Part shown: positions 6,059 through 28,018 of the stretch, piece by piece | Position numbering within the stretch: position 1 is the stretch's first letter | How the letters are laid out: every line of letters starts with the position of its first letter | Source of the DNA: Candidatus Limnocylindrales bacterium | GTDB lineage: Bacteria; Chloroflexota; Limnocylindria; Limnocylindrales; CSP1-4 | NCBI GenBank assembly: GCA_038915165.1 | Contig: JBCLDE010000001.1 | Coordinates: 6,234-70,233 of the forward strand | Direction of reading: 5' to 3' | DNA length: 64,000 bases | Translations under genes and position numbers: made by a program | Notes under the pieces: generated by a model | What the model was told of the DNA's origin: nothing | The model's input: only the letters and a program-made list of their open reading frames with translations | Database searches by the model: none

Positions 6059-7177
6059 GTGAAACTTTCGGTCATGCAGGAGAACCTGGCGCGCGGCCTT
6101 TCGGTCGTCAGTCGTGCCGTTTCGAACCGGAGCACCCTGCCCGTCCTCGCCAACGTCCTGCTCAAGACGGAGGACGCGGGGCTCAAGTTGACCGCTACGA
6201 ACCTCGAGATCGGCATAACCTATTGGGTGCCGGGCAAGATCGAGTCGGATGGCGCAACGACCGTCCCAGCCAAGTTGCTGACGGATCTGGTTAACTCACT
6301 GCCGTCCGGCGATCGCGTCGACCTCACCCTCCAGGCGGCCGATACGTTACATCTGCGATGCGGGCGATTCGAGTCGCACATCAAGGGGATCGATGCCGAC
6401 GAATTCCCCGCCATCGGTGCTGTCGGCGAGCGACCTACGACCAGGATCGCCCAGAACGTCCTGCGCAGGGCCTTGGCTGAGATCGTCTTCGCCGCTGCCA
6501 GCGACGAGGCCCGGCCGATCCTGACCGGGGTCCTCGCCAAGTTCGAGGGCGACCGGTTGACGCTCGCTGCGGCCGATAACTACCGCATCGCCGTCAAGAC
6601 CATCCCGATCCTGGACGCCGTCCCTGAGACGAGCGTGGTCATCCCGGCCCGCGCTCTGAACGAGCTGGCGCGGATCCTCGCTGACGTCGACGACCCGGTC
6701 GAAGTCGTGCTGGCCGGCGGCCGCAATCAGGTCCTCTTCCATCTCGACGGCGTCGACCTCGTCAGTCGGCTCATCGACGGCCAATTCCCGAACTACCAGC
6801 AGGTCGTCCCACAGAGCCATACGACCCGGGCCATCTTCGATCGCGAAGAGCTTCTCCGGGCTGTCCGGCCGGCGGCGCTCATCGCCCACGAATCGGCCAA
6901 CATCGTCAAGCTCCAGATCAGCTCGGACGGCGAGCCCGGGATCACGGTCAGCGCCAACGCTGAGGTGGGCGACCATGTCGGGCAGGTCGCAGCCACCGTC
7001 GAGGGTGACGGGACGACCATCGCGTTCAACGCTCGCTACCTCGCCGATGTCCTGACCAACGTGACCGCCGACCAGTTCGCCCTCGAGCTCAACGGTCCGC
7101 TGTCACCGGGCGTTTTCAAGCCCGTCGGTGACGACCAGTACATCCACGTGGTCATGCCCGTGCGAACCACGTCCTAG
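6059..7177 (+). CDS. dnaN: DNA polymerase III beta sliding clamp
   Basis: The 372-aa product reads KLSVMQENLARGLSVVSRAVSNRSTLPVLANVLLKTEDAGLKLTATNLEIGI...MPVRT. It starts at GTG 6059 and follows dnaA/oriC. Confidence 0.95.
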   Translation: MKLSVMQENLARGLSVVSRAVSNRSTLPVLANVLLKTEDAGLKLTATNLEIGITYWVPGKIESDGATTVPAKLLTDLVNSLPSGDRVDLTLQAADTLHLRCGRFESHIKGIDADEFPAIGAVGERPTTRIAQNVLRRALAEIVFAAASDEARPILTGVLAKFEGDRLTLAAADNYRIAVKTIPILDAVPETSVVIPARALNELARILADVDDPVEVVLAGGRNQVLFHLDGVDLVSRLIDGQFPNYQQVVPQSHTTRAIFDREELLRAVRPAALIAHESANIVKLQISSDGEPGITVSANAEVGDHVGQVAATVEGDGTTIAFNARYLADVLTNVTADQFALELNGPLSPGVFKPVGDDQYIHVVMPVRTTS

Positions 7178-19300: not shown

Positions 19301-21797
19301 GCCGGCGGACCTTGGTCGGCACCCGCTCCCGGCGCCTGGCACCCGGGTCGTCTACGATCGGGCCAGCCAGCAGATCCACATCCTGGGGCTTGTGCCGGGC
19401 AGCTTGTCCGCGTCGCCGTCGGGCACGACGACAGCGCCTGGCTGGACCGTCTACGTCGTGGAACCGCACGGCAACGCCGTCTACGCTGACGCCCGCCTGC
19501 CCGACGGATTCGTGCCCAGCGCCTGGGCCGCGGACATCGAACCGGACTATCCGGCCGAGGATCGCCAGCGGCTGCTGGTCTTCGCGGGGGGTGGCGCATC
19601 GGCCTCGATCGACGTCGGGTCCCATGCCTTCGCGTGGCGGCTCCCCGGCGTCATCGCCGGTGCTCTGACGGCCGGGCTGCTCTACCTGCTCGCCCGGATC
19701 CTCTTCCGGCGCCGCCTGGTGGCCGGCCTGTTGGCGCTCTTCGTCCTCGCCGACGGGATGTTCTTCGTCCAGTCGCGGATCGGTATGAACGACGTCTACG
19801 TCGGGCTGTTCATCGTCGCCGCATACACGCTGTTCGCCGCTCTGTGGACGGGCTGGTGGCGGGGACGGGCCGCCTTCTGGCTGGCGATGCCGGTGATCGG
19901 CGTGCTGCTGGGCCTCGCCCTGGCCAGCAAGTGGGTGGCGGCCTACGCCATCGGCGCGCTCGTCCTGTTGATCCTGGTCCGCAGCGCGCTCGGACGGGTC
20001 CTGTCGATCATCGGCCTCATCGGTATCACCGGCGTCCTAGGCTACATGGCCATCAGCGTCCCGGAAGGGTCGGGGTTCGGGAACTTCACGTTCCTGCTTA
20101 TCATGGTCGCGCTCACCCTGATCGCCGTCGTCGTCGCGGTCGTCCACCCGATCGCCTGGACCGACGAGGAACTCCGCTTCGCGGTCGGCGCCCCGGTCGT
20201 CCTCGGGACGCTGGTCTTCTTCGGTGCCCTCGCTGCCGGCCGGCTCGACACCTCGATCGTGCTTGGGCCCGTCGCCGTCACGCCGCTGCTCGTGGCGATC
20301 GCCCTGGCCAGCGGGTCGCTCATCGTGGCCGGGCTGTTCTGGCTGGGCGGTCGGTTCGGCTTCGGGCCGCTGGCTGCGCCGCCCGGTCCCGACGATCCGA
20401 TGCGCCTGCTGGAGGCCCCCGGCGAGCCACCCGAGGGCTGGCTCCGGCCGGGCTGGCAGCTGGGCCTGCCGGTCGTGTTCGCTGCGCTGTGCCTCGTGGC
20501 GATCCCGATCGCCGTCTACGTCGCCACCTATATCCCGTGGGCGATGATCGAGAATCATCAGCTCGTGCCCGGCTGGCCGGTCGGCCACACCGGCCAGACC
20601 CTGGCTGACCTGACCGCCCAGATGTACCGCTACCACACCGGCCTGACCGCGGCCCACCCGGCGTCATCGCCCTGGTGGGCGTGGCCGCTGAACCTCAAGC
20701 CCGTCTGGTTCCATCAGGAGTCGCTCGGGGGCGGGACGACGGCCGCCCTGTACGACGCGGGCAACCTGGTCATCTGGTGGCTGGGCATCCCGGCCATGGC
20801 CTTCGTCGCGTGGATGGCGTTCAAGCGCCGGAGCCTTGCCCTGACCCTCATCGCGGTCGGTTTCGCGGCCCAATGGATCCCTTGGGCGCGGATCGATCGA
20901 GCGGCCTTCCAGTACCACTACTACACGGCTCTGCCGTTCGTGGTCCTGTCCCTTGCCTACTTCGCCGCCGAGCTGTGGCACGGCGCGTCCCGCCACACGT
21001 GGCAGTTGGCGCGCCTGGCCGGCGCGGCCGCGATCGTGGCCCCGGCCATCATGTGGCTACTGGACCGGCCGCTCTGCGCGTTCGTCGGGGTCGAGTCGGT
21101 CAATCCGGGTTCTCAGGCCTGTCCGGCCGTGATCCCGCAGTTCGTCCTGACCGCACGGTCCGCCGGGCTGGTCGGCGTCCTGGGGGTGGGCCTCGTCGTC
21201 ATCGTGCTGCGCTTTCTGGCGTTCGATTCGCGTGACCGTCATGCGACCGGCCGGAACCAGCTGACCGACGCGTTCCGCTCGCTGATCGGGACCGGCCTCG
21301 TCGTGGTCGCGGCGCTCGTCGTCGTGGCCTTCCTGCCCGACACGCCGATCCTCACCCTCACCAACGTGTCGGTGGAACCGATCGCGTTCCTCGGGGCCAT
21401 CCCGCTCGGCTATCTCGCGCTGCAGGTCATCGGCTCGCGCGACGCCCGCCGGTTCACGGTCGGCCTTGTCGTGGCCGCGGTCGGCTGGTTTGCCATCCTC
21501 TACCCGAATATCAGCGCTCTGCCGCTGCCGTCCGCCGTCGTCAACGCCTACCAGGGCATCCTGCCGACCCACCTGTACGCGTTCCAGTTCCCGATCAGCA
21601 CGGTCGATCGAAACAAGGAGATGCCGCTCCTGACGCCGATGCTGGGCGTCCTGCTTCTCGCGCTCGTCGCGACCTGCCTGGTCGTCGCCTACTCAGCCTG
21701 GGTCTGGCGACTGACGCTTGCCGAAGAGGCCGCCGCGGCGAGGGCCTCCGCGGCGTCGGACGAGACCGAGGGCCTGGCCCGGACCGGCGGCGCCTGA
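16368..21797 (+). CDS. giant (~1810-1834 aa) fusion of two GT-C glycosyltransferase modules; the second is PMT/GT39-like with a ~410-aa YVTN-beta-propeller-like insertion. Start uncertain (ORF from 16293)
   Basis: Module 1 (~16425..17800) carries FYERDFFHDYTPGYLYVLW...SVVWGQVDSVGVVFLLLGL...LIKPQLGILIP (Gpi18/ALG-like). An Ala/Pro linker follows. Module 2 begins near 18160 with HFDEVYHARTATEFL...YEWTHPHLAKY, with the DE motif at 18246..18251. The insert spans 18380..19620 (GAHGLAFVTGLADPRLYVTTG). The PMT core then resumes (AWRLPGVIAGAL...SRIGMNDVYV) and ends in a PMT C-terminal-like region (AAHPASSPWWAWPLNLKPVWF...AFQYHYYTALPF). Confidence 0.7.
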   Translation: MTGPASGGTEQGTRAPSRLTGTQGAVGAVLVVLALGLALRFIIAYLLPGSGFGVDLGAFRFWAHDLATNGPAGFYERDFFHDYTPGYLYVLWLVGIVGNVVGGVGDLIKVPAILADLAIGWLVWSMILELGGRRSLALGAALVAVANPISWFDSVVWGQVDSVGVVFLLLGLRELWRDRPERAAIFTVIAALIKPQLGILIPILALVTIRRAFWPVRDPVVAIQPESTAVAGIWARFLAWERRTDHPFRIVTTGLVALLTTVLLCLPFGLSVLEFSPEAPYLKSGLIAQIFATASGYPYLTVNAFNPWALLAGDTGYSLANAGLWVCDGPWGPDKCGSGVAFLGTIPAVLVGSLLMMIVTVVISFVAARRPDRLTILLSLTLLALAFYVVPTRVHERYAYPFFALAIMLAVIACRWRMAYLVLSVTILLNMYAVLTNPFYANPGISDWLGIGPLIRSEPGVAVIALINGAVFLWAFAQLRAGARNSLAKGLATEEARALAEDEPLAHRAGVVRDPPPPSPAVREATAAAADDHGSATAGSTGPAITAITAALPTWTPRPTYAEIGVLGWFKARLREAPIRPDRSAALRSERRGRLDRLDLWLLVVLVVAAMFLRTFRLAEPHQMHFDEVYHARTATEFLQAWRYGLSHDIYEWTHPHLAKYAMAGGLVLWGQDQAKATSDLGVSVKASVVEPRRDDPLSPGGRSGERLHVATGSEVRTYDLRTRRLVSVVQAAGASALAIDKTGNRLIVGNEAGQISTIDLSVLGSAGVDPGGEAFPLATVDHPVANLLVTADGASIVAASADRLSVVDLATGDVRGSLALPGIADLAPGGSGSALVARVDEASDPAALASTLAELLSGDASDYEARLAKGSPGSTVVLGSPGTGDARKALDTALADGRLPGVSIDDVARVAVATSEGVTFIDPARVSKVSTTTLSGGAHGLAFVTGLADPRLYVTTGADSDPGYQVIAVGGDSAKAGPADLGRHPLPAPGTRVVYDRASQQIHILGLVPGSLSASPSGTTTAPGWTVYVVEPHGNAVYADARLPDGFVPSAWAADIEPDYPAEDRQRLLVFAGGGASASIDVGSHAFAWRLPGVIAGALTAGLLYLLARILFRRRLVAGLLALFVLADGMFFVQSRIGMNDVYVGLFIVAAYTLFAALWTGWWRGRAAFWLAMPVIGVLLGLALASKWVAAYAIGALVLLILVRSALGRVLSIIGLIGITGVLGYMAISVPEGSGFGNFTFLLIMVALTLIAVVVAVVHPIAWTDEELRFAVGAPVVLGTLVFFGALAAGRLDTSIVLGPVAVTPLLVAIALASGSLIVAGLFWLGGRFGFGPLAAPPGPDDPMRLLEAPGEPPEGWLRPGWQLGLPVVFAALCLVAIPIAVYVATYIPWAMIENHQLVPGWPVGHTGQTLADLTAQMYRYHTGLTAAHPASSPWWAWPLNLKPVWFHQESLGGGTTAALYDAGNLVIWWLGIPAMAFVAWMAFKRRSLALTLIAVGFAAQWIPWARIDRAAFQYHYYTALPFVVLSLAYFAAELWHGASRHTWQLARLAGAAAIVAPAIMWLLDRPLCAFVGVESVNPGSQACPAVIPQFVLTARSAGLVGVLGVGLVVIVLRFLAFDSRDRHATGRNQLTDAFRSLIGTGLVVVAALVVVAFLPDTPILTLTNVSVEPIAFLGAIPLGYLALQVIGSRDARRFTVGLVVAAVGWFAILYPNISALPLPSAVVNAYQGILPTHLYAFQFPISTVDRNKEMPLLTPMLGVLLLALVATCLVVAYSAWVWRLTLAEEAAAARASAASDETEGLARTGGA

Positions 21798-22948
21798 GGG
21801 ATCGGCGCCCGGAAGTCGGTCGGCAGCGAACCGCTGGCGGCCAGCCGCCGGATGACGAAGCCGTAGTAGTCCTCCACCCTGGCGGTGACGCGCGGCCAGC
21901 TGAAGTCCTCGGCCCGAGCCCGTCCGGCCTCGCTCATCCTCGCCCGCAGCTCGGGCTCGGAGAGGAGGCGGCCGATCGCCTGGGCCAGCTCCTTGGGCTT
22001 GCGAGGCGGGACGAGCAGGCCTTCGCGACCGCGCCGGACGACCCCCTTGTAGCCGTGGATGTCCGAAGCCACGATGGGCGCTCCGGCGGCCATCGCCTCC
22101 AGCAGGACGATGCCGAACGATTCGCCACCGGTAGCCGGCGACGTGAACACATCGGCCGTCCGAAACAGCTGCGCTTTCTCCGCATCGGAGACCCGGCCAA
22201 GGAATTCGACCGCCTGGAGGCCGCGTGTCGCCACGTAGCGGCGCGCCTCGCGCTCCTGCGGCCCCGAACCAACGACCAGGAGCCGGTTGCCGTAGCCGGT
22301 CTTGCGCAGGATCCGATGCGCCTTCAGCAGGTCAAGCAGCCCCTTGCGCGGCTCGTGCCTGCCGACGAAGAGGACGTTCGGGGTGCCATCCTGCCAGCGC
22401 GCCACCGGGACCGCGCCGGCGAATCGCGGGATGTCGACGCCGTTGGGGATGACCTTGTAGTCGCCCGGAAAGAAGCGGTCGATGAAGTGGCGGGCCGCGG
22501 CGCTGACGGCGATCCGGCCGTGCAGTCGGGCAGCGTGGCCTCGCATCACGCGGCTGCCGATCTCGTAGGACGGGGAGAAGCCCGCGTAGGCATGGAACGT
22601 GGCGATGTTGACGCTGCGCGATTCGCGCAGCAGGAAGAGGGACAGGAACGGCACGAACGGCTCGTGGAAGTGGAGCACGTCGAAGCGCTCGCGGGCGATC
22701 ACGGCGCGGACCTGGCTGATGTAGCGCGGCGAGAACGTGAGCGTCCCGACGGAGCCGTTGGTCGGCATGCTGAAGCCGACGCCGATGCGCAGGACGTCGC
22801 CCTCGGAGGCGCGCTGCGGGCCGTGGCTGGCGGTGATGATCCGGACGTCATGGCCACGCAACCGCAGGTTCGCGTACAGGAACTGGATGTGCTGGGCGAC
22901 CCCGCCCGACTCGGGGTAGATGTACGGGCAGACCAGACCGATCTTCAT
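21689..22948 (-). CDS. pimA: GT4 glycosyltransferase, PimA-like (phosphatidylinositol alpha-mannosyltransferase type)
   Basis: The product reads MKIGLVCPYIYPESGGV...PTNGSVGTL...FDVLHFHEPFVP...ATFHAY...GRIAVSAAA...IPNGVDI...FVGRHEPRKG...GGESFGIVLLEAMAAGAPIVASD. This tracks mycobacterial PimA block by block. The ATGA overlap with the upstream PHP gene lies at 22945..22948. Confidence 0.8.
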   Translation of the reverse strand: MKIGLVCPYIYPESGGVAQHIQFLYANLRLRGHDVRIITASHGPQRASEGDVLRIGVGFSMPTNGSVGTLTFSPRYISQVRAVIARERFDVLHFHEPFVPFLSLFLLRESRSVNIATFHAYAGFSPSYEIGSRVMRGHAARLHGRIAVSAAARHFIDRFFPGDYKVIPNGVDIPRFAGAVPVARWQDGTPNVLFVGRHEPRKGLLDLLKAHRILRKTGYGNRLLVVGSGPQEREARRYVATRGLQAVEFLGRVSDAEKAQLFRTADVFTSPATGGESFGIVLLEAMAAGAPIVASDIHGYKGVVRRGREGLLVPPRKPKELAQAIGRLLSEPELRARMSEAGRARAEDFSWPRVTARVEDYYGFVIRRLAASGSLPTDFRAPIPQAPPVRARPSVSSDAAEALAAAASSASVSRQTQAE

Positions 22949-23790
22949 CGGGGTCCGCGCTCGCCGGAATCGAAGCGCGGCGGCCGTAGCCGTCCACCCG
23001 GATAGCCGTGGTCGCGGCCCGTGCCGTCGCGGCGCAGGCGACCAGCCACCTCCGCGCGGGCGTCTCGGCCTCGCTTGCGCAGCTGCTGGCCGAACGTGCC
23101 GAGCTGGCCGGCCAGCTCGTGGAACGAGCCGCCGTGATCGGTCGTGCGCCCGACGATGGCCCGGTGGAGGTCCGCCGCGTCGCTCCCCGGGAAGGTCGTC
23201 CAGCCAGTCCCGATGGCGTCGAGGGTATGCGCATCGCTGTTGCCCAGGCGAGCCAGACCGTGGACATCGGCGAACTGGACGACGCGGCGATGCCAGGGCC
23301 GCCCGAGGGCCGTCGGGTTGAACGTTTCGAGGCCGTCGGGGTGGACCGCCGGGTTCGGGTCGTCCAGGAGTCGACGCAGGACCCAACCCTGGGCGCACAG
23401 CGGGAACGGAACGAGCGGATGGGCCGGGATGGCCAGGCCGCCGGCGTCGTGGACCGCGAGGATCGTCTCGCGCAGCGAGCGCAGCGGACGGATGGGCCGC
23501 TCCACGAAGAGCGCCAGGAGGTGCCCGCCGAGCGTGGTGACCTCCTCGCCCACGACGACCTCGACACGCAGGCCGCGGTCGCGTGCCATGGATCGAGCCG
23601 CGAGCGCGGCATCGACCCGTCCGTGGTCCGCGATGGCGATGATGTTGAGGTCGGTCCGTCCCTCGACGTGGGTCAGGATGGCGTCGATGCTCGCGGTCCC
23701 ATCGCTGGCGAGCGTATGGATGTGGAGATCGGCACGGCCGCGTCGCTCGACGCCATCCGCCATGCCTTGGTGGGCCACCGGCTGCGTCAT
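22945..23790 (-). CDS. PHP-domain metal-dependent phosphoesterase
   Basis: RADLHIHTLASDGTASI (HxH motif), IIAIADHG, AIPAHP and LGNSDAHTL are typical PHP metal ligands. The gene is coupled by ATGA overlaps on both sides (23787..23790, 22945..22948). Confidence 0.8.
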   Translation of the reverse strand: MTQPVAHQGMADGVERRGRADLHIHTLASDGTASIDAILTHVEGRTDLNIIAIADHGRVDAALAARSMARDRGLRVEVVVGEEVTTLGGHLLALFVERPIRPLRSLRETILAVHDAGGLAIPAHPLVPFPLCAQGWVLRRLLDDPNPAVHPDGLETFNPTALGRPWHRRVVQFADVHGLARLGNSDAHTLDAIGTGWTTFPGSDAADLHRAIVGRTTDHGGSFHELAGQLGTFGQQLRKRGRDARAEVAGRLRRDGTGRDHGYPGGRLRPPRFDSGERGPR

Positions 23791-24785
23791 GCCGCGGCCT
23801 CCTGTTTGGCCCCGGCCTCCCGTGCTGCGTCGGCCTCGAGGTCCGGCCAGATCGGGAAGAAGACGGCCCACCATTGCTCCGGAGCGTCGGCGATGAGCTC
23901 CTCGAAGGCGGCGGCCAGGGCGGTCATCGTCGACGTGACACGCTCCCGTCGTGAGCCGTCTGCGGGGACGTCGATCGGGATGAGGCGGGCGCGGAAGCGG
24001 CCCTTGCCGGCGCGCCGGACGCCCATCGCGTAGGTCGGCACGCCACTTTCGACAGCGAGCATGGCGGGCCCCATGGGCAGCACGGACGGAGCGCCGAAGA
24101 GCGGGATGGGTGTTCCGCCGCCGGTCAGGTCCCGGTCGCCGACGAGGCCGACCGGGATGCCCTCGCGGAGTGCGGTCAGCAGGGCGCGACGCGCCTTGCG
24201 CAGGCCGACGAGGCGGATCCCGGCCACGCCGCGCGTCCGCTCGAAGTAGGCCTGCAGGCCCGGGTCGTCGATGGTCTCCATCGGCGTCACCGTGCTCCCG
24301 ACCCGAAAGGCGAGGAAGACGACGGCCAGCTCGAGGGAGCCGAAGTGCAGGCCGACGAACAGGACGGCCTTGCCCGGCACGACGGCCTGGGCGATGAGTT
24401 CCGGCGTATCGAGGATCAGTCGCTCGTCCACGAATCCGCGGGTGACTGCCGGCGTTCGGGCGACCTCGATGTAGTAGCGAGCGGCATGCCGGTAGGCGCT
24501 GCGGACCAGTCGCTCCAGGGCGACAGGGTCCGTGGCGGCCGCGCGAACGGCCGGGCTGCCACGCCCCGAGGCGTGCAGCGACTGGGCAACCCGGCGGAGG
24601 TTGCGGCGGGCCTGGGCCGCGCGGTCCGGGGTCGTCCGGTGCCACAGGTCGCCGGCCAGTTCGGCGGCTCGGAAGAGCGGGCCTTCCGGCAGTCGGCAAG
24701 CGAGCCAGGACGCCCCGATGAGCGCCCGGCCGCGAAGTCGCGAGCCGAGGCCCACGCGCCGGACGGTGTCGGCGCCGTCGCTCAC
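23787..24785 (-). CDS. lysophospholipid/lipid A-type acyltransferase (HtrB/LpxL family; PatA-like), copy 2
   Basis: It has the family layout: NLRRV...AYRHAARYYIEVAR...GKAVLFVGLHFGSLE...GLVGDRDLTGGG...FGAPSVLPMGPAMLA...PEQWW. The GTG start at 24785 overlaps the upstream stop (GTGA). Confidence 0.75.
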   Translation of the reverse strand: MSDGADTVRRVGLGSRLRGRALIGASWLACRLPEGPLFRAAELAGDLWHRTTPDRAAQARRNLRRVAQSLHASGRGSPAVRAAATDPVALERLVRSAYRHAARYYIEVARTPAVTRGFVDERLILDTPELIAQAVVPGKAVLFVGLHFGSLELAVVFLAFRVGSTVTPMETIDDPGLQAYFERTRGVAGIRLVGLRKARRALLTALREGIPVGLVGDRDLTGGGTPIPLFGAPSVLPMGPAMLAVESGVPTYAMGVRRAGKGRFRARLIPIDVPADGSRRERVTSTMTALAAAFEELIADAPEQWWAVFFPIWPDLEADAAREAGAKQEAAA

Positions 24786-25750
24786 GGGGCGTCGTCCACG
24801 TGTGTGCCGTGGCCGTCCTCGGATCCGAGCGCCGGGCCAGGGTCCCGCTGCCCGGCCTGCATCGTCCGTGCGCGCCGCTCGAGGTCCGCAGCCTCCTCGG
24901 CGGTCTCTGGCCAGATCGGCTTGAAGCTGTACCACTGCTCGGGGGCCGGCCGGATGGTGTCGGCCAGGGCGTCGGCGACCGCCTGGGTAGCCCGCTGGAG
25001 CTCAGCCGGATCCGAGGACGTGACTGTGATCGGATCCCCCCAGCCCACGTGGAGACGGCCGCCGGGCTGGCGGGTCGTCACGATCGGCAGGATGCGCGAG
25101 TGGGTCTTGGCCGCCAACGTCGCCGGTCCCGCGGGCAGCGTGGTCCATGCACCGAACAGCTGCACCGGGATGCCGTCACTGCGGTAGCCCCAGTCGACGA
25201 GAAGCCCCAGCATCTCGCGCCGTCGAAGGACCCCAAAGATCGCCCGCAGGTTGCGCCATGGGATGAGCGTCGCGTTCCACTGCTCGCGTTGGCGCTTGAG
25301 CAGGTCGAACAGTTCAGGGAACGATGAATCGTCAGCGACGACGCTGAGCGGCAGGCCGAGATCGGCGATCGCCGCCCCGATGACGTCGTTGTTGCCCACG
25401 TGGCCGACGGTCAGGATGAGTCCGCCATCCGATGATGCCCCCAGGATCCGCCGCGCCTCCGCACCATCGATGGGATCGACGAGTTTGACGATCTCGTCGG
25501 GCTGCATGAACGGCACACGCATGAGCTCGACGAGGTAGTCGCCATACGCTCGGTAGGCGCGCAGGGCCATGGCACGGACCCGGGGATCGCCCGGCGGCAG
25601 ACCCAGGACATGCCCGAAATTGCGGTTTGACCACGCACGTTTCGTCGGCCAGAGAAGATACGAGGCCTGGGCGCCAAGTCCCAACAGGGCTCCGGCCGGC
25701 CGAGCCGGCACGGTACGCAGGACCCATGCGGCGGCGCGGTAGGCCAGCAC
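24782..25750 (-). CDS. lysophospholipid/lipid A-type acyltransferase (HtrB/LpxL family; PatA-like), copy 1; start uncertain (GTG 25750)
   Basis: It has the same family layout: NFGHVLG...AYRAYGDYLVELMR...GGLILTVGHVGNNDV...GLLVDWGYRSDG...LFGAWTTLPAGPATLA...PEQWY. It is a paralog of the downstream gene. Confidence 0.7.
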   Translation of the reverse strand: MLAYRAAAWVLRTVPARPAGALLGLGAQASYLLWPTKRAWSNRNFGHVLGLPPGDPRVRAMALRAYRAYGDYLVELMRVPFMQPDEIVKLVDPIDGAEARRILGASSDGGLILTVGHVGNNDVIGAAIADLGLPLSVVADDSSFPELFDLLKRQREQWNATLIPWRNLRAIFGVLRRREMLGLLVDWGYRSDGIPVQLFGAWTTLPAGPATLAAKTHSRILPIVTTRQPGGRLHVGWGDPITVTSSDPAELQRATQAVADALADTIRPAPEQWYSFKPIWPETAEEAADLERRARTMQAGQRDPGPALGSEDGHGTHVDDAP

Positions 25751-25824
25751 GACGGACCGTTCCAGGATCCGTGATCGTGCCCCACCGCGCCGGTGCGGCG
25801 CCTCGAGTCGACGCTCGCTCGAGT

Positions 25825-27069
25825 TCACTTGGCGGCGGCTACCTTGGCCTTCGATCCGGCGAGCTTGCGCAGCGTGCGCTTGGGCGGTGCCTCCGTCCCG
25901 ACGAGGGTCTCGTTGTCTTCGCCCCGGATGAATGCCTCGACGCGGTTGAACGCGATGTCGTCGTGGATCTGGTGCGGCGGGCTCTTCATGAAGTAGCTCG
26001 ACGGGGCGACCAGCGTTCCGGCCAGGCCGCGGTCCAGGCCCAGCTTCAGGCAGCGGATGGCGTCGGTGATGACGCCGGCGCTGTTCGGGCTGTCCCAGAC
26101 CTCCAGCTTGAGCTCCACATTGAGCGGGACATCGCCGAAGGTCGTGCCCTCCATCCGGATGTAGCACCACTTGCGGTCCAGGAGCCACGGCACGTGGTCG
26201 CTTGGGCCGACATGGATGTCGTCGGGGTCGAGCTCATAGTCGAGCATGGACGTCACGGCGTTCGTCTTCGAGATCTTCTTCGACTCGAGGCGCTCGCGCT
26301 CCAGCATGTTGAGGAAGTCCGTGTTGCCGCCGAAGTTGAGCTGGTAGGTGCGGTCCAGGCGGACGCCGCGGTCCATGAACAGGCGAGTCAGGACGCGGTG
26401 GGTGATCGTTGCACCGACCTGGCTCTTGATGTCGTCGCCGATGACAGGCAGGCCGGCCTCTGCAAAGCGACGCTGCCAGTACGGCTCGCGACCGATGAAC
26501 ACCGGGATGGCGTTGATGAAGCCGACACCGGCTCGGAGCGCCTGCTCGACATACCACTTGGTCGCCTCTTCCGAACCGACTGGCAGGTACGAGACCATCA
26601 CATCGACTTCGCGCTCCTTGAGGATGCCCACGATGTCGGCCGTGGGGCCGGGCGCCTTCTCGATGATCTGGCTGAGGTACTTGCCCAGGCCGTCGTGGGT
26701 CATGCCGCGCTCGACGGTGACGCCGGTGTGGGCCACCTGCTGGAAGACGATCGTGTTGTTCGGCTTCGTGTAGATCGCCTCGGACAGGTCCTTGCCGACC
26801 TTGTTCTTGTCGATGTCGAACGCCGCCACGAACTCGATGTCGCGGACGTGGTATCCGCCCAGGTCGACATGCATCAGGCCCGGGACGAAGTCGTCCTTCT
26901 TGGCCTCCTCGTAGTAATAGCGACCCTGGACCAGACTGCTGGCGCAGTTGCCGACGCCGACGATCGCGACGCGGATCTTGCCGTCGCCACGGCGCCCGGC
27001 GCCCGCCCAGGTGTTGGTCGGCATCGCGCCGCTCTTGCCGCTCTTGCCGCTCTTGCCGTTGGTGCTCAC
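25825..27069 (-). CDS. ino1: myo-inositol-1-phosphate synthase (start GTG 27069 or ATG 27024)
   Basis: [60 protein letters not shown] and NILGNTDF-like [11 protein letters not shown] are all present. Confidence 0.9.
27028..27058. repeat. 9-bp tandem repeat gccgctctt x3 (+ partial) at the 5' end of ino1
   Basis: Read directly from the sequence. It encodes (GKS)3 if translation starts at GTG 27069. Otherwise it abuts ATG 27024 as 5' leader. Confidence 0.9.
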
Positions 27070-27085
27070 GTCGGTCTCTGTACTC

Positions 27086-27769
27086 CTACTGCGACTGGGT
27101 CGACTGGTGATGGGCCTGGCTGCGGACATGGAGGATCCGCTGGATGACGGTGATGGTGGCACCCACGGCGATGACGGCGAGGGCCGCCGTCAGGGTCCCG
27201 CCCTGCGGGTCGCAGGGACCAGCGCACGCGGTGCCCGCCGGGACGGCTTCGTAGATCGGCACCGGGGCAAGGATCAGCCCCAGGCAGAGGATGACCAGGC
27301 GAACCTCGCGCGGCATGACGCCCACGGCGGCCATCCCGGTCCCGGCGGTGAACCCGAGCCCCTCCGACTTGGCGCGCGTGTAGCTGACCATGAACGCCGC
27401 GCCCATCGCCGCCGCGGCGAGGATGGCTCCCTCAACGAAGCCGGCGAAGGCACAGCCGGCGATGATCCCGACGTAGACCAGCATCTCGCCCCAACGATCG
27501 AAGATAGAGTCCATGAACGCGCCGAGCCTGCTGACCTTGCCGATCGCTCGGGCCAGGGTCCCATCGAACATATCGAAGACGCCGCCGATCAAGACGACGA
27601 GGCCGCCGACGAGCCAGAGCTGCTGCGATACAAGGACGGCCCCGACCGCGGTGATCGCGAAGCCGATGAGCGTCAGGGCGTCAGGCGTCAGGCCGAGCCG
27701 ACCCATGCCGAGCGCGATCGGCTCGAAGGCCTTCTTGACGCGTGTGCGGGAGTCGTTGGAGATCGTCAT
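27086..27769 (-). CDS. CDP-alcohol phosphatidyltransferase (phosphatidylinositol-phosphate synthase-like)
   Basis: The signature D(x)2DG(x)2AR(x)8G(x)3D(x)3D is seen as [31 protein letters not shown]. The gene is adjacent to ino1 and a pimA-like gene. Confidence 0.85.
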
Positions 27770-27772
27770 CGG

Positions 27773-28018
27773 CTAGATGGCGAAGCCGAGGACGGCCCGT
27801 TCGCGAGCGGCGAACTCGGCGAAGGCCTCTCCGCGCAGGCGACAGACCGTTTCGCGGCCCTGACGGCGAGTCTCGACGACGCCGGCTGCCCGCAGGCGAC
27901 CGAGGTGCCACGAGACGAGCGGCTGGGAGAGCCCGACGTGGGCCGTGAGCTCTGCGACAGTGGCCTCGCCACCGGCCAGGCTACGCACGATGCGCAGCCG
28001 ATTGACGTCGGCCATCAC
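27773..28018 (-). CDS. ArsR/SmtB-family HTH transcriptional regulator, first gene of the inositol-lipid operon
   Basis: The 81-aa product reads RLRIVRSLAGGEATVAELTAHVGLSQPLVSWHLGRLRAAGVVETRRQGRETVCRL, a winged-HTH ArsR pattern. Confidence 0.8.
   Translation of the reverse strand: MMADVNRLRIVRSLAGGEATVAELTAHVGLSQPLVSWHLGRLRAAGVVETRRQGRETVCRLRGEAFAEFAARERAVLGFAI

Follow-up and report, generated by a model that had tools for sequence, protein, structure and literature searches.

Bacteria and archaea synthesize phosphatidylinositol (PI) via phosphatidylinositol phosphate (PIP). So far, the only bacterial PIP phosphatase to be identified genetically is the PgpA-like protein BT_1525 of Bacteroides (PMC9246714), while the enzyme acting outside this genus is still described as unidentified (PMC4634129, PMC9385802). 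Here, we analyzed a 64,000-nucleotide stretch of DNA (hereafter the window; positions 6,234 to 70,233 of contig JBCLDE010000001.1, GenBank assembly GCA_038915165.1, Candidatus Limnocylindrales bacterium), in which a gene for a PHP-fold metallophosphoesterase is embedded in an operon for PI and phosphatidylinositol mannoside (PIM) synthesis. Based on gene context, we propose with moderate confidence that this enzyme is the PIP phosphatase of the PI/PIM pathway in the class Limnocylindria and in a number of further families of the Chloroflexota. A first-pass annotation of the same DNA had put the gene forward as a candidate for a phosphatase step whose enzyme it regarded as not firmly assigned in actinobacteria; for Bacteroides, a PIP phosphatase has already been described.

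Two known systems invite comparison with the locus. The mycobacterial pgsA1-patA-pimA-Rv2609c operon presumably combines, as does the window, a PIP synthase, a PatA-type acyltransferase, PimA and an extra hydrolase. We take it to differ in that its hydrolase gene, encoding a Nudix protein, lies downstream of pimA, that it contains a single acyltransferase gene and that ino1 is located elsewhere, whereas the PHP gene of the window lies upstream of pimA. In its proposed function, the PHP enzyme resembles BT_1525 of B. thetaiotaomicron, which converts PIP to PI and is encoded in an inositol-lipid cluster beside a PIP synthase and an inositol-phosphate synthase (MIPS). However, BT_1525 belongs to the PgpA family (PF04608), whereas the window protein has a PHP fold, shows no similarity to BT_1525 and gave no match to PF04608 in the Pfam search. 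Any function in common would be analogous rather than homologous.

The source assembly is a metagenome-assembled genome (MAG) of a soil bacterium from the class Limnocylindria within the Chloroflexota (2.42 Mb, 165 contigs, ~77% complete), and close homologues of the PHP protein (77-95% identity) derive from MAGs labelled Candidatus Limnocylindrales or Chloroflexota. The actinobacterial framing of the first-pass annotation therefore had to be abandoned. In contrast, its reading of the locus was confirmed. Seven co-directional genes on the minus strand (21689-28018) follow the order arsR, pgsA, ino1, AT1, AT2, PHP and pimA, where AT denotes an acyltransferase, and Pfam and NCBIfam annotation of the window bore out the succession of PIP synthase, acyltransferases, PHP and pimA. 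The PHP reading frame is open throughout and coupled at both ends, as its ATG (23790-23788) shares the sequence ATGA with the TGA of AT2 and its TGA (22947-22945) shares ATGA with the start codon of the PimA-like gene, an ATG. Further upstream, ino1 and AT1 as well as AT1 and AT2 overlap by GTGA, with likely GTG starts at 25828 (AT1) and 24785 (AT2), so that four consecutive 4-nt start/stop overlaps (GTGA, GTGA, ATGA, ATGA) connect ino1 to pimA. The previously noted metal-ligand motifs HIH, DH, AHP and SDAH were also recovered, as H23-I-H25, D55-H56, A123-H124-P125 and S185-D186-A187-H188.

The association of the PHP gene with pimA is conserved. Among loci retrieved from species genomes, all of Limnocylindria type, the PHP gene is located directly 5' of pimA in 45 of 45 cases, and the order arsR-pgsA-ino1-AT1-AT2-PHP-pimA is held wherever the contig permits. 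A phylum-wide search gave the same adjacency in 29 of 29 loci, including five from families outside the class, in which the order is different (ino1-PHP-pimA-pgsA or AT-AT-PHP-pimA-pgsA). In 20 further families, the best PHP match fell within [arsR]-ino1-AT(-AT)-PHP-pimA-pgsA clusters in 15 cases. The position of pgsA thus varies, being first in the window cluster and last elsewhere, while arsR stands at the cluster head in Limnocylindria and several other families. On a maximum-likelihood tree of 69 PHP family members, the cluster-linked label required 8 changes, compared to a mean of 21.5 when labels were shuffled, and none of the 500 shuffles gave a value as low. In Limnocylindria and some twenty additional families of the Chloroflexota, there is thus good support for placing the PHP protein in the PI/PIM pathway.

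The most compact arrangement was observed in two streamlined Chloroflexota genomes (1.2 and 1.7 Mb, 99-100% complete). Both carry a minimal ino1-PHP-pimA-pgsA cluster without acyltransferases and with a 4-nt PHP/pimA overlap (L144, G244:C44, 1750-5247; L145, G260:C21, 3224-6989). Provided that the PHP enzyme dephosphorylates PIP, these four genes would turn glucose-6-phosphate and CDP-diacylglycerol into PIM1.

Some further loci extend this picture. One genome that also holds a main PHP-pgsA cluster contains a second pair of a PimA-like gene (46% identical) and a PHP gene, with two acyltransferase-like genes in convergent orientation (L135, G225:C39, 2774-6549), which may represent a PIM-type module that has been duplicated or has become specialised. 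A PHP-pimA pair is also encoded on a 2-kb contig assigned to a 'Patescibacteria group bacterium' bin (L040, DATJGH010000191.1); this pair is 71-72% identical to the window proteins and nests in the Limnocylindria clade, and the contig is probably mis-binned. Apparent fusion proteins in the database, namely PHP-GT4 (P0127, 628 aa; P0202, 726 aa) and an acyltransferase fragment joined to PHP (P0068, 466 aa), may be genuine Rosetta-stone fusions, but were not counted as evidence because single-base errors (frameshifts) at the 4-nt overlaps could equally have produced them.

The PHP protein itself is only partly covered by family models. The PHP_C domain (PF13263) passes the Pfam threshold at residues 166-213 (42.6 versus 21.3 bits) and was recovered again when the whole genome was searched for this family, whereas the PHP model (PF02811) remains below its gathering threshold (20.1 versus 26.4 bits) and matches only the N-terminal 66 residues. 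Across 40 aligned homologues from PI/PIM clusters, which share 36-91% identity, D21, H23, H25, D30, D55, H56, E83, H90, H124, E155, N158, S185, D186 and H188 are invariant. The nine-ligand PHP set (H23, H25, D30, H56, E83, H90, H124, D186, H188) is complete and, by motif order, corresponds to a three-metal site; residues were assigned in this way to the positions of YcdX, whose ligand pattern we take to be H, H, H/D, H, E, H, H, D, H. An AlphaFold model computed on the 40-sequence alignment reached a predicted local distance difference test score (pLDDT) of 92.3 and a predicted template modelling score (pTM) of 0.88, and was used instead of a single-sequence model, which was set aside (pLDDT 42.5). 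The model adopts the distorted (beta/alpha)7 barrel of PHP enzymes, and all 38 Foldseek matches at E<=1e-3 were PHP proteins or PHP domains of DNA polymerase III/PolC, with a top probability of 1.0. Taken together, the protein is a real, if divergent, PHP phosphoesterase, recognised by its fold rather than by the Pfam PHP model, and is probably active.

The closest folds are those of BVU_3505 (3e38) and TM0559 (2anu), two structural-genomics proteins of the same compact PHP/PHP_C type (Foldseek E 5e-12 to 5e-10; template modelling (TM) score 0.53-0.74 depending on normalisation; ~18% sequence identity), followed by RNase AM, PsfC and Cv1693 with TM scores of 0.5-0.6. As TM0559 and BVU_3505 are uncharacterised, the nearest structures do not indicate the substrate. 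NCBIfam did not provide a specific assignment either: the protein scored 56.4 bits against the CehA/McbA family metallohydrolase model NF038032 (cut-off 80) and far under the cut-off of the PolX equivalog, and no NCBIfam match to histidinol phosphatases HisK/HisJ was found. Similarity to HisK-type structures was low (TM 0.36-0.37 to 2yxo; E 0.15 to 4gyf), and the profile match to 3dcp (E 0.0027) spanned 65 residues.

Considering that the Joint Genome Institute (JGI) labels relatives as 'predicted metal-dependent phosphoesterase TrpH', and that RNase AM and Cv1693 are the best PDB sequence matches, the gene might encode a TrpH/YciV-type phosphoesterase with a housekeeping role in nucleotide or RNA metabolism, i.e., a 3',5'-nucleoside bisphosphate (pAp) phosphatase or a 5'-3' exoribonuclease, that came to lie in a lipid operon by historical accident. 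Indeed, RNase AM (7ug9, 9etk) and Cv1693 (a 3',5'-nucleotide bisphosphate phosphatase, 2yb1) have the PHP fold, the N-terminal motif D-x-H-x-H-T-x-x-S-D-G and the three-metal ligands in common with the window protein. However, the sequence matches to these solved structures end after about 90 residues, structural similarity is limited to a TM score of about 0.5, and the genomic contexts differ. The window protein is also shorter between H90 and H124, the region at which RNase AM and Cv1693 presumably carry an insertion domain. Scores against the corresponding NCBIfam models fell far below the cut-offs for both RNase AM/TrpH (NF047791, 40.3 versus 375 bits) and pAp phosphatase (NF041577, 28.1 versus 400 bits), each match being confined to residues 20-87. 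Moreover, a linkage to pimA that outlasts both rearrangement across families and genome streamlining is unexpected for a passenger gene. We therefore regard a housekeeping role as very unlikely.

Whether the pathway needs a PIP phosphatase depends on the product of its synthase. The NCBIfam models that the window synthase matched best were NF040950 for archaetidylinositol phosphate (AIP) synthase (134 bits) and NF045883 for PIP synthase (108 bits), and neither score reached the cut-off. Alignment to the structures of RsPIPS and MtPgsA1 revealed that the arginine of the RxxR motif and a second arginine (R153 and R191 of RsPIPS) are kept, as is the position of S132. This arginine pair binds the phosphate of inositol phosphate and is needed for activity; its conservation is absolute among PIP synthases, whereas eukaryotic PI synthases lack it (Clarke et al., PMC4634129). 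Since the window synthase keeps both phosphate-binding arginines, its product should be PIP, and a step that dephosphorylates PIP is therefore needed.

Known or conceivable enzymes for this step are scarce. Neither PgpA nor PAP2 was found in the window's own genome; PgpA is present in 4 out of 301 Chloroflexota genomes, and PAP2 in 7 out of 21 relatives and in none of eight genomes from a sister family that has small genomes but retains the cluster with PHP. The window's own genome encodes, at another site, an IMPase-family protein, suggesting that a phosphatase for free inositol phosphate is not what the operon lacks. The most economical function to assign to the PHP enzyme is the conversion of PIP to PI, since no other obligatory step lacks a gene and the protein is a competent phosphoesterase. 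Pathway linkage, the synthase arginines and the scarcity of PgpA and PAP2 thus support the function proposed in the first-pass annotation, while the reaction itself is one that we infer from context.

A PHP enzyme that belongs to the PI/PIM pathway could also catalyse a different hydrolysis, acting on free inositol phosphate, on a nucleotide-activated precursor (GDP-mannose or CDP-diacylglycerol) or on mannosylated PIP, or serving as a phosphodiesterase in inositol-lipid turnover. The same linkage evidence fits this explanation, as linkage speaks for membership in a pathway and not for a reaction. For the hydrolysis of a nucleotide-activated precursor, a possible functional analogue is Rv2609c, the product of the Nudix gene that presumably follows pimA in the mycobacterial operon and that we take to be a nucleotide-sugar hydrolase. 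In addition, characterised PHP relatives act on nucleotides or RNA (Cv1693, RNase AM) or on diesters (PMC11656708). On the other hand, the arginine pair of the synthase indicates that free inositol is not its substrate, inositol phosphate already has a potential phosphatase in the IMPase-family protein, and the low scores against the RNase AM and pAp phosphatase models argue against those activities. That a regulatory hydrolase should be retained in the four-gene cluster of genomes of 1.2-1.7 Mb would be surprising. Finally, the obligatory dephosphorylation of PIP would be left without a candidate wherever PgpA and PAP2 are lacking. A different reaction within the pathway is the strongest of the rival explanations, but appears rather unlikely.

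If the PHP enzyme is a PIP phosphatase, the operon would encode the following route. Ino1 would convert glucose-6-phosphate to inositol phosphate, which the CDP-alcohol phosphatidyltransferase would join with CDP-diacylglycerol to form PIP. The cytoplasmic three-metal PHP enzyme would then cleave the phosphomonoester on the inositol ring, yielding PI for mannosylation by the PimA-like enzyme, whose gene is translationally coupled directly downstream, and the two PatA-like acyltransferases would acylate the mannosylated product. The PHP protein lacks a hydrophobic stretch of membrane-spanning length. The protein core carries a net charge of -7, whereas the C-terminal helix (226-253) and the tail are net positive (+8 over residues 226-281). 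By a common definition applied to all cluster homologues, the tail charge is +7 in the window protein and net positive in 38 of 40 sequences, with frequent aromatic residues. These sequence features would fit a protein that binds peripherally to anionic membranes, and the positive helix and tail may hold the acidic catalytic core at the membrane surface.

The coordinates of the operon genes are compiled in Table 1. The start of Ino1 is uncertain, with a GTG at 27069 and an ATG at 27024 as candidates. The two acyltransferases (23787-25828) are diverged from each other and arranged in tandem; their number varies between zero, one and two in clusters across Chloroflexota families, with the PHP-pimA adjacency kept. 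The model NF005919, to which both were compared, describes a PIM acyltransferase.

Table 1 Genes of the PI/PIM operon in the window, listed in the direction of transcription
Feature	Position	Strand	Basis
ArsR/SmtB-family regulator, heads operon	27773..28018	minus	HTH_5 + NF033788
CDP-alcohol phosphatidyltransferase, predicted PIP synthase (pgsA), 227 aa	27086..27769	minus	NCBIfam and structure alignment
myo-Inositol-1-phosphate (inositol-3-phosphate) synthase Ino1	25825..27069	minus	TIGR03450 7.7e-162 (538 bits, cut-off 638) and PF01658
Acyltransferase 1 (AT1), PatA/HtrB family	24782..25828	minus	PF03279 4.6e-29; NF005919 122.9 bits, below cut-off
Acyltransferase 2 (AT2), PatA/HtrB family	23787..24785	minus	PF03279 2.4e-25; NF005919 120.5 bits, cut-off 209
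PHP-fold metallophosphoesterase (PHP + PHP_C), 281 aa, candidate phosphatidylinositol-phosphate phosphatase	22945..23790	minus	Translation, Pfam, model
PimA-like GT4 mannosyltransferase, 419 aa	21689..22948	minus	Pfam Glycos_transf_1 + Glyco_transf_4

To place the enzyme in the phylum, the presence of PHP (at E<=1e-10) and of Ino1 was called in 301 Chloroflexota genomes. PHP homologues were detected in 270 and Ino1 in 265 genomes. Both occurred together in 239 genomes, Ino1 alone in 26, PHP alone in 31 and neither in 5 (3.7 expected). As both families are nearly ubiquitous, the co-occurrence of PHP and ino1, which the first-pass annotation had suggested as a check, is uninformative at the family level. 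Several of the genomes scored as Ino1-negative (G228, G292, G013, G038, G156, G265) lack the actinobacterial-type Ino1 and encode a longer MIPS homologue (open reading frames of 514-558 aa) that is unlinked to the PI cluster, suggesting that two MIPS types supply inositol phosphate within the phylum.

A number of observations weigh against the proposed role as PIP phosphatase. Among 30 evenly spaced Chloroflexota genomes, 28 of which had a pgsA-like match, only 10 have the PHP gene at a distance of no more than 6 kb from pgsA. Many families possess compact PI clusters without PHP, e.g., ino1-pimA-pgsA or AT-AT-pimA-pgsA. The 26 genomes with ino1 but no PHP homologue at E<=1e-10, among them G048, G126 and G223 (99-100% complete), which encode pimA-pgsA as well, show that PHP is not a universal part of the pathway. 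Conversely, unlinked PHP copies also occur in genomes without MIPS, e.g., G011 and G024, so that the family is not devoted to PI and serves at least one further purpose. Only D49 and G163, which are cluster-specific, set linked copies apart from unlinked ones, and no signature of substrate specificity can be claimed from these two positions. Furthermore, the closest structures (TM 0.5-0.6) are either uncharacterised or belong to nucleotide- or RNA-directed enzymes, and PHP enzymes can also be diesterases (PMC11656708).

If the operon copy acts as PIP phosphatase, the step is carried out in other Chloroflexota either by an unlinked paralogue or by a different enzyme. At seven PI clusters that lack PHP, the neighbouring genes that were checked included no phosphatase; their products were a permease, adenylosuccinate synthetase, serine hydroxymethyltransferase (SHMT), a sugar-phosphate isomerase-like TIM barrel, an esterase, TruB, ParA and one protein without a Pfam match. 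Two of the four PgpA-bearing Chloroflexota (G159 and G300) belong to a family (f46) without a PHP homologue at E<=1e-10, and one of them, G159, has an ino1-GT4-pgsA cluster. This is a small hint at a complementary distribution of PgpA and PHP.

Unlinked PHP copies form several clades on the tree and have unrelated neighbours. A theme common to their surroundings was sought and none emerged, the neighbours including SurE, MarR, MFS, CYTH and an anti-sigma factor. The window's own genome encodes a second PHP/PHP_C paralogue (L002, G000:C73, 1327-2076, minus strand, 249 aa, 37% identical) between murA and mreB on its upstream side and the gene for a multi-pass membrane protein of 383 aa on its downstream side. 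Other Limnocylindria have equivalent second copies, which group together in a clade with good support. In a complete 2.1-Mb genome with an AT-pimA-pgsA cluster and no detectable MIPS (L104, G010:C1, 6747-9277), a PHP2-type gene is located in convergent orientation right after pgsA.

The breadth of the family raises the question of whether all of its members could be generic phospholipid head-group phosphatases of Chloroflexota, acting on phosphatidylglycerophosphate (PGP) as well as PIP and replacing PgpA/B/C, with the operon copy being one specialised or conveniently placed paralogue. The 270 genomes with PHP homologues, set against the near absence of PgpA and the patchy occurrence of PAP2, would fit such a role, as would the near identity of linked and unlinked copies at conserved positions. 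Some unlinked copies are also found near membrane or lipid genes (the 383-aa multi-pass protein with mreB/murA; GT4 with DedA/VTT; the PHP2-type gene convergent with pgsA). However, the neighbours show no consistent theme, 31 of the 301 genomes lack the family at E<=1e-10, and the argument is inferential throughout, the phosphatase searches behind it having covered PgpA and PAP2. We consider a generic function of the whole family quite improbable.

A related and similarly speculative proposal, to which we give slightly more weight while still thinking it unlikely, is that compact PHP/PHP_C proteins constitute an unrecognised class of phospholipid head-group phosphatases, which in Chloroflexota would convert PIP to PI and possibly, through unlinked paralogues, PGP to phosphatidylglycerol, in place of PgpA/B/C. 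The control genomes that encode PHP_C were those of B. subtilis, Thermus, Deinococcus and Thermotoga, together with four archaeal genomes. Because of the archaeal occurrences, PHP_C relatives might include an archaetidylinositol-phosphate phosphatase. Outside the phylum, linkage to PI genes was looked for in one representative, a Bacillota-labelled MAG (P0246), and was not found.

Three further controls, C. glutamicum, B. thetaiotaomicron and E. coli, had no PHP_C protein. Considering that the window derives from a Chloroflexota genome and that C. glutamicum, a PIM producer, has no PHP_C protein, the enzyme does not explain the mycobacterial or actinobacterial step; the candidate is specific to part of the Chloroflexota. 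In the literature, we found nothing that links a PHP protein to PIP dephosphorylation, and nothing on PIMs in Chloroflexota.

Returning to the assignment of the PHP enzyme as PIP phosphatase, the locus provides a candidate with a fold different from that of BT_1525 for a large and mostly uncultured phylum. The candidate is plausible, and if it is confirmed, a known step would gain a new fold class. Such a function would extend the substrates of the PHP superfamily to a lipid and would represent a non-orthologous displacement at the dephosphorylation of PIP. The ino1-PHP-pimA-pgsA cluster would constitute a natural minimal PIM1 pathway that is suited to reconstitution. If the assignment is true, Chloroflexota would make PIM-type glycolipids by a route similar to that of mycobacteria.

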